Assembly (NCBI RefSeq): GCF_041146345.1
Contig: NW_027191413.1
Location: forward strand, 682,001-746,000
DNA from: Neodothiora populina
Lineage: Eukaryota
Direction of reading: 5' to 3'
DNA: 64,000 nucleotides
Notes under the pieces: model-generated
What the model saw: only the letters and a program-made list of their open reading frames with translations
What the model was told of the DNA's origin: nothing
The model's database searches: none
Shown: one piece after another, positions 10,267 to 56,988 of the stretch
Layout: each line of letters starts with the position of its first letter
How positions within the stretch are numbered: the stretch's first letter is position 1
Position numbers and translations under genes: made by a program

Positions 10267-10889
10267 TTAGTCGAAAAGACCGAAGCCCATGTCGTCGTCG
10301 GACTCCTCCTTCTCCTCCTCCTTGGCCTCCTCAGCAGGGGCGTCGGCAGCGGCACCACCAGCGGCGGCACCACCGGCGGCAGGGGCGGCAGCGGCACCAC
10401 CTCCGGAGCCAACGTTCAGGAGAAGGTCCTTGACATCCTTGCCCTCGAGAGCCTGTAGTTGTCGCACACACATGGTCAGAAAAAAGGTCTTGTTCTACGT
10501 TTGCTTTGCTTGCCGGTTGCTTCCAAAAGGATTGAGAGGGTGTGATTGAATATGTACCTTGGCGAAGAGGGTGGTCCAGATGGGCTCAACGTCAGCGACC
10601 TTAGCGGCACCGATGAGGGTCTGGAGCTTGTCGGCCTGTAGAAAGAAAAGAATGTCAGAGCTGGAGTTTTATTTTCTTCATCATCGCTGCAGCAGCGCGT
10701 GTTGCTTCTCGTCTGTCTCTCGTGTCTCTGTTTCTCTTCTCTATCGAACTTTTTTCTTTCTCGCCGCTGCTGCTGCTGCTGCTAGATGAGGGGGACTTGA
10801 AAGGAGGATGCTCAGCGTACGGTGATCTCAATACCGTCATCGGCCAGGATGAGGGCGGCGTAGGAGGAAGCGAGCTCGGAGGTAGACAT
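10267..10889 (-). CDS. rpp1: 60S acidic ribosomal protein P1
   Basis: Spliced product [60 protein letters not shown]...[13 protein letters not shown]. Introns 10820-10636 and 10557-10453. Confidence 0.96.
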
Positions 10890-11241
10890 TTTGAGGGATG
10901 TTTTGTGGTGGTGTTGAGATGCCTTACAGTTTTCTGAAGGGTAACTGTCGGACTTCTTCTCAGTGGATTGATGATCTCTTTCGCGAAAGTCTTTCTGGGA
11001 TGCGAGTGTGAAACCAAAATGTCGACGCGCTAGCTCTCGCTTGTCCGGCGAATCGACGGCTCTTCATGCTTCTTGCGCCGGGGGCCGACCTCCGACTGGG
11101 CTTGGCGTTGAGCAGAAGTCTTGGCAGATACCCCCGCAGCCTGAGGCGACAAGAAGGCGACCGAGTGCTGTCCGTGCGCTACCATGACCACTAACGGGGG
11201 CCTGTCAGCCAGGCGGTCTCGTGCAGCTCTAGCCGGACAGA

Positions 11242-11292
11242 GACAGAGAGGAGAGAGAGACAGAGAGGAGAGAGAGACAGAGAGAGGAGAGA
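11242..11292. repeat. Purine-rich tandem repeat, 17-nt unit GACAGAGAGGAGAGAGA x ~3, in the rpp1 / YPL260W-like divergent promoter
   Basis: Two identical units 11242-11258 and 11259-11275, plus a third variant unit. Confidence 0.85.
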
Positions 11293-11712
11293 TGTCTTGG
11301 CTCAAGTGTGCGTCATTGGGTTGATGCCCGCCGCCGCCGCTCTTTCGACCTTCGACCTTCTGGGTGCTGGGATAAGCGATCCCTATCTAAGAGTAGCTTA
11401 AGCCTCCGTAGTAGTCACTTACTAAGGTACGTTGCGACCATTCAGTAATCTGCATCCGTGTCGCGTGGAAACTGCTGTACTACTACTATATACCAGACCG
11501 CAACATTGACAAGCTACACAAAATACACATCACTATCAGCTTAACAACCACAAAGGACGCTGAGATTGAGCAACTGTGACTTCTCTGACGACCACCACCG
11601 CCGCCACATCACCCCGCTCCTCTGTCTCTCTCTCTCTCCACAGCTTCCACCAGGACCCGGACAACCACCTCACCTTCCTTGAACAACTTCATCAACCCTC
11701 AACCATAAAATC

Positions 11713-51771: not shown

Positions 51772-52377
51772 TCAAGTCATTGTGCCTTGAAAATGCGGCT
51801 GCGGACGCGGCGGCGTAGGTACGACACCCAGATACTGTAAAGCCACTTCGGCAGCATCTTCTCTAGCATTGTTGACGCATGCCCCATCATACCAATATCG
51901 GGCTCGATGCTTTCTCCCATCGACTTCCACAGTACTGGACCAGGCGGTGCGACCCCCTACAAACGATCAGCGTTCTCGATTTCACAGATCTGTCTAGCTG
52001 TTTGCACAGTGGGTGACAGGAATCGTGACCCCTGACGTTACTAGATAAGCGCTCTGATCCTCGTTCTCAGCAGCTTGAATCGAGACTTTGTAAGGGAAAG
52101 CTAGAGCCAGTCTCTAATGTCAGGGGTCACGATTTTTGTCACCCACTGCGTTGCCTAGACGCAAGTACGAGATTCAGCAAGAACCGTATGACATACCTCG
52201 TCGATCAGAGCATTCCTGATAGACCGGTGGACGGACACCCATGCTCCTACATTGGCCTAGCAAAGTCAGTCATCGCACTAAAGAACAATGGCTCAATGCC
52301 AACTTACTGTTCAGCCGGGTCTGCCATGCCATGGACTGCGTTGAACTAGCCAGGGTCTGAGCATTGGCTGCTGACAT
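51772..52377 (-). CDS. Small (104 aa) double-stranded-RNA-binding-domain-like protein, 3 exons, absent from the ORF track
   Basis: Exons 52377-52308, 52256-52197, 51956-51772 (315 nt), with GTAAGT/GTATGT donors, CTGAC/CTGAT branches and TAG acceptors. Product MSAANAQTLASSTQSMAWQTRLNSQCRSMGVRPPVYQECSDRRGGRTAWSSTVEVDGRKHRARYWYDGACVNNAREDAAEVALQYLGVVPTPPRPQPHFQGTMT, with an alpha-beta-beta-beta-alpha pattern ending AxxxAAxxAL. Confidence 0.82.
52007..52148. mobile_element. 142-bp MITE-like element with 34-bp terminal inverted repeats starting CAGTGGG (Tc1/mariner, impala/mimp-like ends)
   Basis: Left TIR 52007-52040 CAGTGGGTGACAGGAATCGTGACCCCTGACGTTA. Right TIR 52115-52148, reverse complement CAGTGGGTGACAAAAATCGTGACCCCTGACATTA (31/34 identical). 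74-bp non-coding core. The TA target duplication is not intact (flanks CA / CG). Confidence 0.8.
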
Positions 52378-53798: not shown

Positions 53799-55167
53799 TC
53801 ACCACTCATGGGTATGACTGCGCAGTGTTGAAGGCCGATGAAGCATATCTCTCCAAAGGGTCTTGGTCCCGACGTAGTCAACATCCACCCTGAATTTCGG
53901 AACTGGAATCAAGAATTGTCGACGCATTTGGGGATGAAAGCGCTGCTTGATACAGTCATCTGCTAGTGCAATGAGTCCACTAGCAACGACGACACTGGTT
54001 GGGTGGTCAGAGATATGCCATAAAGAGCGGTGCACGTTGGGCGACTTACTCAGATGCCTCGGTCTGGTCTTGCAGAATCGTTTCATCGTCAATCTGCATG
54101 ACACACGGTGGTATCCACCCGCCTTTGCTCTCTTCCTCGTCAGCTTCGACAGAAGTCAGATAACAAGGCTCAATACGCGCCAGTACCCGCGAGTCCCCTG
54201 CGCGGTGTAAGTAGTACAGCATGCCCTCCGAAGGACCAGACTTGTCGACTATGCGCTTCCACACGTATTCAGTACCCCAGTACTCGAATTCATAGCGCTT
54301 ATTACTTCTCGTACCCCTACGCTTGACCTCCACTTGTGAGTAATTTGCGAATTCGAGCTTGGTCGTATTCGTCGGGATGAGCGTATGTCTCGTACTTGAC
54401 AAATCACGCATGGCCGGAAGTCCAGCATCTCTCTCCACGAATTTCGACGAGTTGATCGACTCATAGCCAGAGTCTGATCTCTTCAGCTTTGGGGTAGTGA
54501 CGACCTTACCGCCATCCGACTTCATCGCAGCAAAAGCAGTACTGAGGGAGCGTCCAAGATGCGGCCTGCGTTCGATCGCCGGCTCTCTATACTTTCGCAC
54601 CGAGTGGCAAACCTCACGACCAGAGTCTCGACAGTATCGTCGCAACGAGAACTCTCGCTTCTTCAGGTCATGCATACGAAGGTGGAATAGAGTCATTTTC
54701 TGAGGCCTGCTGCCTGGGATATCTACAGCAGTATCGATGCGCAGATTCATGTTACCATCGGCAGTGGAATCATCGTGTCTGATGATCAGACTCCTCTTGG
54801 AGGGAAACAACCGGGCGAAATCCGACGGCGTTGTCGGCAAGGCTTCAGATGGATATAATCTTACTGTTCGCATCCGAGGATCCTCGTTTTCTAGTTCCTC
54901 ACTATCTGCATCGATAGTTGAGGCGTACGTCTCTACAGAGGAATTAGGGCCATCACTATAGTCAGACCAACGGTCACCATCGACACAGCGATGCTCTATT
55001 CTCGCACCGCATGTTTCGTAACGAGGGACTGCGGGTCTTGTGGGCAATTCGTTTCTAGCAAGAGGTGTTGATTTGGAGTTGTAGGACTTTTCGCTCGCGT
55101 GGGAATCACTTCCGGAGAACCCAGAATCCCGACTTTGAGGATAGCTTCGAGAGGTAAGATGGTTCAT
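53799..55167 (-). CDS. Conserved hypothetical fungal protein
   Basis: Long ORF with globular-looking blocks (TPSDFARLFPS, IRHDDSTADGNMNLRID, LFHLRMHDLKKREFSLRRYCRDSGREVCH, KLEFANYSQV, YEFEYWG, GGWIPPC). Intron 54049-53995 joins to DVVVASGLIALADDCI. Confidence 0.8.
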
Positions 55168-56988
55168 GATGACGATGATGAATGTCGTATGAGTATAGGC
55201 AATAAAGTATTGGAGCAATATAATCGAGAAGGGCCTGTGCGTGAAGAGGCTACTAGACCACCGTGGGTGAAGTACAATTTAACAACACCACATTGTTGTT
55301 GTATAATCTTGGTTGAGATTGACGTACGTCTTGTAGCATCATCAGAATAGGGGGTAAGAAAAAACAAGTTGGTGTTCCAGATAATTGAGAAAGAGATCCC
55401 AACTCAGCGGGTTGGGAACATTGCTGGTCTTTCTAACATGCTACGGTGCCATGGTTTCCCCACGGTGATACGGCATCCCTAAGCAACGCATGGAGCGCCA
55501 ACGGCACACTGCATGATAGCGTCTCTAGCATTATGCAGGTCATACCCAATGAAGTGATCTTCTATACCGCCCATTCAGAACAATGTCACCGATGCTTCCG
55601 CATGCACACACGCAAAGACCTCGCAGTAGGGCCCCCCCCCCCCCGCCCCTCTAGACCTGCACTCTGCCACGTTACAGCACGAGACACCCGTCGGTCCTGC
55701 GAGTGGCGTATCGGAATGTGCCAACAGTCACAAGCCCCCATCACCTCGATCACATGCAGGCTGCTTGTACAAGCAAAATCCATCGCCCATACACATCCGG
55801 GCGCCCATCTTCGCCTGGTAGCCGTGCCTGTTAGCTGTACCTACAGCACTCGCAGCTGCTTGGGTATCGCTTTAGATCGAATTAGCCATGGAATAGCCAT
55901 ATGATAGCCATCACGATCCTTCTTCCTTGTTATGCGGCTGAAGCAAGAAAGAACAAGGTTATCGTACCTCGACGCCGCGTTGCGTGCGTGTATTGCTAAA
56001 CAGGAAAAACCGAGCCTAAAGGCAAGATGACTTTTATGAAAAGCTCCACGGACTATTCGAATCTAAACGCCCGCCGCCTGCCCGTCGGCTGTCAAAAGTC
56101 AGCTTGCACCAATTGTACGACCACCACTACTGATACTGACTACTTTCGCTGCCTTCTGTCTCGCCTGAGCCAGGTAGCCGCATCATATGCCCTTCTCAGC
56201 CAGTCATCTGGGCGCGGCCTGAGTCTCCCATCCATCACATCGAATGTTTCTGATGACTGACTTTCCGCGGGATCCCAGGCATGAGCAGGCGAAACAAGTG
56301 CCCGCTCGGCCAGCCAGCCAGTTGTAGCTTGAGACGATTCCACCCTTTGGGCCCAGCAATATCAAACCGGTAGCACACCTATGTAAGTGCAGCTTGCGAA
56401 CGAGCGAGCGAAGCATCGATCGGCGCACAGCACAGCCCAGCCTGAAAGACGTGAGCGATTCGTCCCAGCTAGCCAGCTAGCTAGTGAGCGGGACTACACT
56501 ACTCGATCGTTCTCTTTTCCTGTCTCACGATCCACGATCTCCCTTCCCCTTCCCGTTCACGCATTGTTGTTTACCCAAGAAAAGGGTTTGGTTCCAAGGT
56601 AGGTAGGCCCCCGCCGTTCCATTGCGCTGGAGCAGCATAGATAGCTTGTGAGGAAAGAGTGAGAGTGGAGCTTGCTTGTCCTGTCGAGCCCCGCGGCACA
56701 GATGTACATGAGGTAAGGTAAGGTGTGTATGTATGTATGTATGTAGGTACACAGCGGCTAAGACGTGTGCGGAGATGCTCCGCATATAATGCATGCACAC
56801 AATGTCTTGCCGTATCGTATCGTATCGTGTCATTTTTCACGGTTCCCAATCAGACAGCATTCACCTGTCGATGGATGGGACGGGGGCTTATCTTCTTACT
56901 CATCCGCCGACTCGGTTGCGTGGCTCACTCAGCCCCTCCTCTACTTCGTCTCTTGCCAGGTCTGATTGCACAGTAATCCTTGCCTGAC

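Follow-up and report, generated by a model that had tools for sequence, protein, structure and literature searches.

Canonical dsRBDs make their main contacts with RNA through a histidine in the β1-β2 loop and a KKxAK motif at the start of helix 2. Among DNA transposons, a CAGTG start is typical of Tc1-type ends, and multi-copy status is a defining property of a transposon family. In those passages of the mimp literature that define the elements, mimps are described from Fusarium and are recognised by a regular expression, a length of 180-220 bp and a TA duplication (van Dam and Rep, 2017, PMC5579170), their repeats being about 27 nt long (PMC3599309; PMC5579170). The 3' IR pattern given in the corresponding section of Schmidt et al. 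(2013, PMC3599309) is TT[TA]TTGCNNCCCACTG, after which TA stands in 150 of 158 matches, TA being the required target duplication of both mimps and impala (PMC3599309); a similar mimp pattern appears in the relevant part of PMC6131394.

The locus compared here with these systems is AAFC00_002607, a three-exon gene of ordinary make-up that had already been annotated in the Dothideomycete Neodothiora populina and lies on the minus strand of the window, i.e. the whole 64-kb stretch of DNA that was analysed. The surroundings are those of a housekeeping region, comprising aconitase, a kinase, DHODH, a thioredoxin-domain protein and a xanthine/uracil permease. The initial annotation had proposed three short exons that splice into a 104-aa protein, and this model was reproduced exactly: joined by script, the exons form a CDS of 315 nt encoding 104 aa, the product matches the deposited protein, and many homologues run on without a break across the exon junctions. 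The gene had also been called hidden, a label that has to be dropped since the identical 104-aa protein is already on record in both NCBI and UniRef. A protein search with exon 3 retrieved it (P0001, 104 aa, 100% the same as the spliced product), listed as "hypothetical protein AAFC00_002607 [Neodothiora populina]" in the former and as "DRBM domain-containing protein" in the latter. The components of the gene are as follows, branch-point motifs having been called with the consensus CTRAY:

52377-52308, minus strand: exon 1, 70 nt, with the ATG at 52377; residues 1-23 and the first base of codon 24
52307-52257, minus strand: intron 1, 51 nt, GTAAGT..AG, with a CTGAC branch-type motif at 52269-52265
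52256-52197, minus strand: exon 2, 60 nt, encoding the end of helix 1 and strand 1, terminating in ...SDRRG with a split Gly codon
52196-51957, minus strand: intron 2, 240 nt, phase 1, GTATGT..AG, at the same position in 57 of 80 homologous loci
51970-51966, minus strand: putative branch-point CTGAT, with its A at 51967, 10 nt from the 3' splice site and outside the stem described below
51956-51772, minus strand: exon 3, 185 nt including the stop at 51774-51772, encoding strands 2-3, helix 2 and the C-terminal tail

Translation of the retained forms showed that retention of either intron 1 or intron 2 leads to early stop codons. Searched alone, neither exon 3 nor exon 2 matched any Pfam family. 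Just upstream of the gene, on the same strand, stands a 410-aa open frame (54049-55278, minus strand) with no Pfam match at E <= 1e-5.

The structure of the encoded protein was modelled with AlphaFold2 using an alignment of 42 full-length members of its family (alignment A1 of the P0001 family). The model, with a mean pLDDT of 79.6, places helices at residues 17-29 and 68-86 and strands at residues 35-43, 46-55 and 58-61, and together with Foldseek it reveals the α1-β1-β2-β3-α2 fold of a dsRBD. The top-ranked structures in the Foldseek search of the PDB were dsRBDs (HYL1, DRB4, DRB3, DRB7.2, hDus2, Staufen, TRBP and RNase III); eight matches were obtained at E <= 0.001, and the first, HYL1 (3adg), had an E-value of 2.3e-5, a TM-score by target of 0.84, an rmsd of 2.0 Å and a probability of 1.00. 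HYL1 dsRBD1 was retrieved again, with E 2.8e-4, when the PDB was searched with the family profile. The Pfam dsrm profile (PF00035) aligned over nearly its whole length to residues 20-86, scoring 17.2 bits (E 0.0078), which is below its gathering threshold of 23, and just 2 of the 11 family members scanned gave any dsrm match at E <= 10. The initial reading of the protein as a stand-alone dsRBD is upheld as regards the fold, on which AlphaFold2, Foldseek and the HYL1 profile match agree, but it needs qualifying on account of the sub-threshold Pfam score and the contact motifs, which are mostly replaced. In structural terms, the 104-aa product is predicted to be a stand-alone, divergent and non-canonical protein of dsRBD-type fold.

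Alignment to HYL1 dsRBD1 locates the divergence. The α-β-β-β-α fold is common to this protein and the HYL1/DRB dsRBDs, with TM-scores by target of up to 0.84, and the conserved ..AAEVAL.. of helix 2 aligns, whereas the β1-β2 loop reads DRRGGRT, with no histidine, where HYL1 has EGPSHKS, and helix 2 starts with NNARED where HYL1 has NRKAAEQ. A single basic residue, R75, is found at the start of this helix, where the family has either R or K; neither the loop histidine nor KKxAK, the canonical motifs of RNA contact, is kept. The loop does hold three conserved arginines (R42, R43 and R46 in A1). On this sequence evidence, binding of dsRNA by the protein is plausible, though not assured, since most of the RNA-contact residues of canonical dsRBDs are missing.

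The family itself extends far beyond N. populina. HMMER, run exhaustively with exon 3 as the query, returned 262 representative clusters at E <= 1e-3, 55 of them at E <= 1e-10, and the look-alike clusters of the protein atlas, with 421, 87 and 54 members, were from Ascomycota. Judging from these matches and from A1, the P0001 family is apparently large, widespread in Ascomycota, strongly conserved and uncharacterised. Nine positions are invariant across the 42 aligned members (S40, R43, R46, T47, A48, W49, D77, A78 and A82), and a further set is conserved in at least 90% of them (C26, P34, D41, R42, G44, G45, S50, A62, R63, W65, Y66, D67, G68, A74, E76, A79, E80 and L83). The resulting signature, SDRRGGRTAW ... 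ARYWYDG ... NA[RK]EDAAEVAL, is conserved far above what would be expected of a generic dsRNA binder. No Pfam family covers it at threshold, and the P0001 family is a candidate for a family definition of its own. Judged by titles and abstracts, the literature on fungal DRBM domain-containing proteins included nothing on this family, and that on Neodothiora populina included no genome or transposon analysis.

Deposited gene models of relatives are often wrong near the middle exon, and the shortness of this 60-nt exon is the probable cause of the frequent misprediction. Some models skip exon 2 (P0003 and P0005), joining WQ..L.S directly to GRTAWSS, and others, P0034 and P0040 among them, read through intron 2. 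As the length of exon 2 is a multiple of three, genuine skipping would also keep the reading frame.

What sets the N. populina gene apart is the content of its second intron. An inverted repeat (52007-52040 / 52115-52148) with arms of 34 nt, complementary at 31 of 34 positions (91%) and spaced 74 nt apart, stands first in strength among the 14 inverted repeats reported for the window and delimits the following features, none of which is assigned a strand:

52007..52148: MITE-like insert of 142 bp, consisting of two 34-nt terminal inverted repeats and a 74-nt non-coding core
52007..52040: left terminal inverted repeat, starting with CAGTGGG and departing from the published mimp IR pattern at 3 positions
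52115..52148: right terminal inverted repeat, ending with CCCACTG and differing, over its final 16 nt, at 1 position from the mimp 3' IR pattern as published

The positions and the pairing of this repeat, including its three A.C mismatches, are as the initial annotation had given them. At each mismatch (52019/52136, 52020/52135 and 52037/52118), a G in the left arm stands against an A in the reverse complement of the right arm, and it is this shared polarity that makes all three of them A.C on the sense RNA of the gene. On the antisense RNA they become G.U, leaving an unbroken stem of 34 bp at -98.1 kcal/mol (z -7.73). Of the two arms, the left appears to be derived when compared with the mimp consensus. 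Folding of intron 2 gave -96.3 kcal/mol, compared with -64.3 +/- 5.0 kcal/mol for 200 shuffled sequences, none of which was as low (0/200; z -6.46), and on this measure the stem is real. The earlier observation that donor, branch point and acceptor are left outside the stem also holds: the donor (52196-52191), the acceptor and the CTGAT at 51970-51966, which is the sole acceptor-proximal match to CTRAY, all lie clear of it, and one further motif, CTGAC, lies inside the 5' arm. Stop codons occur inside the insert in the reading frame of the gene. As to the statement that introns of about 50-60 nt are typical here, the unusual length of intron 2 stands in comparison with intron 1 (51 nt) and with 50 homologous introns of other organisms (median 61.5 nt), to which the comparison is confined.

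Just beyond the arms, within 51990-52006 and 52149-52166, a 6-bp complementary pair (GTCTAG / CTAGAC) forms part of the predicted fold; it may be due to chance, or it may be the trace of a palindrome that was once longer. An intronic snoRNA or another known RNA family was considered and rejected, as Rfam gave a single generic match, to a model of miRNA-hairpin type and on both strands, at 27.5 bits, below the gathering threshold of 90. Elsewhere in the window, at 10712-11639, there is a cluster of GA/CT-rich low-complexity inverted repeats with several pairs of 20-34 nt.

The ends of the repeat resemble those of known transposons. The last 16 nt of the right arm (52133-52148) differ at one position from the mimp 3' IR pattern; this is the sole such match in 64 kb, where 0.05 would be expected, and it sits exactly at the terminus of a repeat that was found independently. 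The left arm, with its three mismatches, is not significant by itself, 7.95 such matches being expected by chance in the window. Both arms start with CAGTG, as Tc1-type ends do. With a 74-nt core, the unit of 142 bp also has the structure expected of a MITE, namely a short non-coding core (<500 bp) between terminal inverted repeats. Against a mimp in the strict sense, the flanking dinucleotides are CA (52005-52006) and CG (52149-52150), with no TA duplication, and the length of 142 bp falls outside the 180-220 bp stated in the published definition. Other target duplications were tried without success: for a hAT-type duplication of 8 bp, the flanks TGTTTGCA and CGTTGCCT agree by eye at 4 of 8 positions, which is unconvincing, and the 3-bp TTG duplication that arises when the repeats are extended by 2 nt is too weak to use.

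Searches for further copies were uniformly negative. Within the window, neither the arm pattern nor BLASTN gave a second copy; a 30-nt pattern of the arm with up to 3 mismatches recovered the two arm sites alone (0 expected from 100 shuffles). BLASTN of the insert and of the whole intron against the window and 80 homologous loci yielded short chance matches only. Metagenome contigs contained no pair of the two 12-nt termini at a distance of 103-133 nt, a search that diverged copies or copies of other lengths would escape. No transposase domain occurs in any of the window's 77 ORFs with 130 aa or more, and an 11-nt terminus string, when searched in the literature, led to unrelated papers only. 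By its sequence, the insert is best described as MITE-like with impala/mimp-like termini; it is not filed as a mimp because of the CA/CG flanks, the shorter unit, the longer repeats and the absence of a second copy or a transposase from the sequence searched.

With A1 as the profile, 80 homologous loci were collected from metagenome contigs, and the junction of exons 2 and 3 was located in each by script. An intron occupies exactly the same codon position in 57 of the 80 loci, no intron is present there in 14, and the junction was not found in the remaining 9; all 57 introns end in AG, 56 starting with GT and one with GC. The 50 distinct introns among them have a median length of 61.5 nt and range from 49 to 377 nt, a single one being 240 nt or longer, compared with the 240 nt of N. 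populina. Their longest exact Watson-Crick stem does not exceed 9 bp, against 16 bp within the 34-bp stem of N. populina, and their MFE per nt lies between 0 and -0.32, against -0.40. A stem comparable to that of N. populina was found in 0/50, nearest relatives included. In the loci that match best (L008 and L009, 69% identity) the intron measures 52 nt, and the model of the closest relative by protein (P0034, 73% over exon 3) includes an unspliced intron of about 132 nt, the translation of which bears no likeness to the insert. Insert-like sequence was present in none of the 80 loci.

Eight of the loci in which no intron interrupts this position (L001, L002, L003, L005, L006, L007, L010 and L038) are uninterrupted start-to-stop ORFs of the family, closed at both intron positions, on contigs of 1.0-1.7 kb, and represent either assembled transcripts or intronless genes. 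Four more (L024, L027, L041 and L060) lack intron 2 and have no start-to-stop ORF; L041 is on a contig of 1.8 kb, the other three on contigs of 11-314 kb. Taken together, the loci suggest that the position of intron 2 is old and conserved, with a normal length of about 50-130 nt, and that the hairpin is lineage-specific.

The reading preferred here, to which we assign a probability of roughly 60%, is that of a lineage-specific MITE-like insertion that is tolerated in intron 2. A neutral, tolerated insertion had been mentioned initially as an alternative, and it is now favoured by the absence of the hairpin from 50/50 homologous introns and by ends that resemble those of Tc1/mariner MITEs. Intron 2 would have acquired the non-coding insert of 142 bp in the N. 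populina lineage, either by transposition or as a decayed copy, and, as the termini resemble impala/mimp (Tc1/mariner) ends, the insert is most likely a MITE or a decayed remnant of one. Secondary structure within introns can shorten the effective distance between donor and branch point, as in yeast introns. In the pre-mRNA the two arms may zip into the long stem and loop the insert out, so that some 48 nt of ordinary intron would remain next to the donor and 50 nt next to branch point and acceptor, with the splice signals accessible; intron 2 could then still be spliced, and the insertion would be tolerated. Seen in this way, the hairpin would be a by-product of transposon structure, tolerated because it is intronic, and not a device serving the gene. 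One figure counts against the insertion: without the insert, intron 2 would measure 98 nt, which is above the median of its homologues.

The same repeat could have arisen locally, through replication template switching or repair that made an inverted copy of some 34 nt of the intron, in which case the likeness to mimps would be coincidental. Knowledge of one copy only, across the window, the metagenome contigs and the 80 loci, fits such an inverted duplication, as do the missing TA duplication and a size beyond the range given in the published mimp definition, and the GTCTAG / CTAGAC pair extends the palindromy past the putative element. A duplication of this kind would, however, leave unexplained why a 16-nt transposon terminus with a single mismatch, expected 0.05 times in 64 kb, falls exactly at the end of the repeat, and why both arms begin with the CAGTG of Tc1-type ends; we consider this origin unlikely, though it is the most serious competitor of the transposon-like insertion. 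A different question is whether the hairpin has consequences for the gene. Its stem might be cut by Dicer as a putative source of small RNAs, or it might slow splicing and cause retention or the skipping of exon 2, with less output, the encoded protein being uninvolved in either case. Either strand folds into a long, stable stem, the 60-nt exon 2 can be skipped in frame, exon-2-less models exist (P0003 and P0005, possibly annotation errors), and plant MITE-derived miRNAs are a topic in the titles and abstracts of the literature. The structure is, on the other hand, not conserved in any relative examined, and a role of this sort appears improbable.

Least credible is the proposal with which the hairpin was originally presented, namely an autoregulatory module in which the dsRBD-like protein binds the intronic hairpin of its own transcript, with feedback on splicing, or in which the hairpin feeds Dicer. 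A 34-bp stem exceeds the duplex length that a dsRBD needs, the fold is of dsRBD type, and R42, R43 and R46 are conserved in the β1-β2 loop. Yet the hairpin is absent from all 50 homologous introns, nearest relatives included, although the protein is highly conserved, and the initial annotation had itself named absence in close relatives, coupled with unchanged splicing or expression on deletion, among the observations that would speak against its module. Since the protein is conserved and the hairpin is not, the conserved function of the protein cannot be the binding of that hairpin. The canonical motifs of dsRNA contact are replaced in the HYL1 alignment, the dsrm score of 17.2 bits lies below the cut-off of 23, and, as dsRBDs are without sequence specificity, nothing would mark out the hairpin of intron 2. 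With ends that are MITE-like and 0/50 relatives sharing the structure, the module finds no support, and autoregulation is very improbable. A narrower variant would have a recent transposon hairpin captured as a feedback element in this lineage alone, the arginine-rich dsRBD-like protein binding the stem or passing it on to Dicer and thereby tuning its own splicing. The chances of this are equally slight; if it were true, we would be seeing a dsRBD gene at the moment of recruiting an autoregulatory dsRNA from a MITE.

A tolerated, transposon-like intron insertion in an annotated small gene is a common kind of event and carries little weight by itself. Should genome-wide copies exist, impala/mimp-like termini in a Dothideomycete would widen the known range of this element type, which the passages cited above describe only from Fusarium. 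The stand-alone, non-canonical dsRBD-like family in Ascomycota merits functional study whatever the hairpin proves to be.

Set beside canonical dsRBDs (PF00035), the protein is distinguished by the near-invariant W49, W65, Y66, D67 and G68, which are peculiar to the P0001 family, and, in contrast to canonical dsRBD proteins, it stands alone in about 100 aa without a partner domain. With intronic MITE-derived hairpins that give rise to small RNAs, known mainly from plants as far as titles and abstracts describe them, the locus has in common an inverted-repeat element in a transcribed intron and a long stem. The likeness to mimp/impala elements (Tc1/mariner, Fusarium), as defined in the passages cited, lies in the short non-coding unit and in terminal inverted repeats that start with CAGTGGG, and the right arm, compared by eye, fits the mimp regular expression of 2017 as well, bar the same one position (PMC5579170). 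Differences from the published mimps are found in the left arm with its three mismatches, in the length of the unit (142 bp, as against 180-220 bp) and of the repeats (34 nt, as against about 27 nt), and in the flanks, which are CA/CG in place of a TA duplication (PMC3599309; PMC5579170). The element from N. populina is known as a single copy across the window, the metagenome contigs and the 80 loci, and its host is a Dothideomycete, whereas the mimps of the cited descriptions come from Fusarium (PMC5579170).
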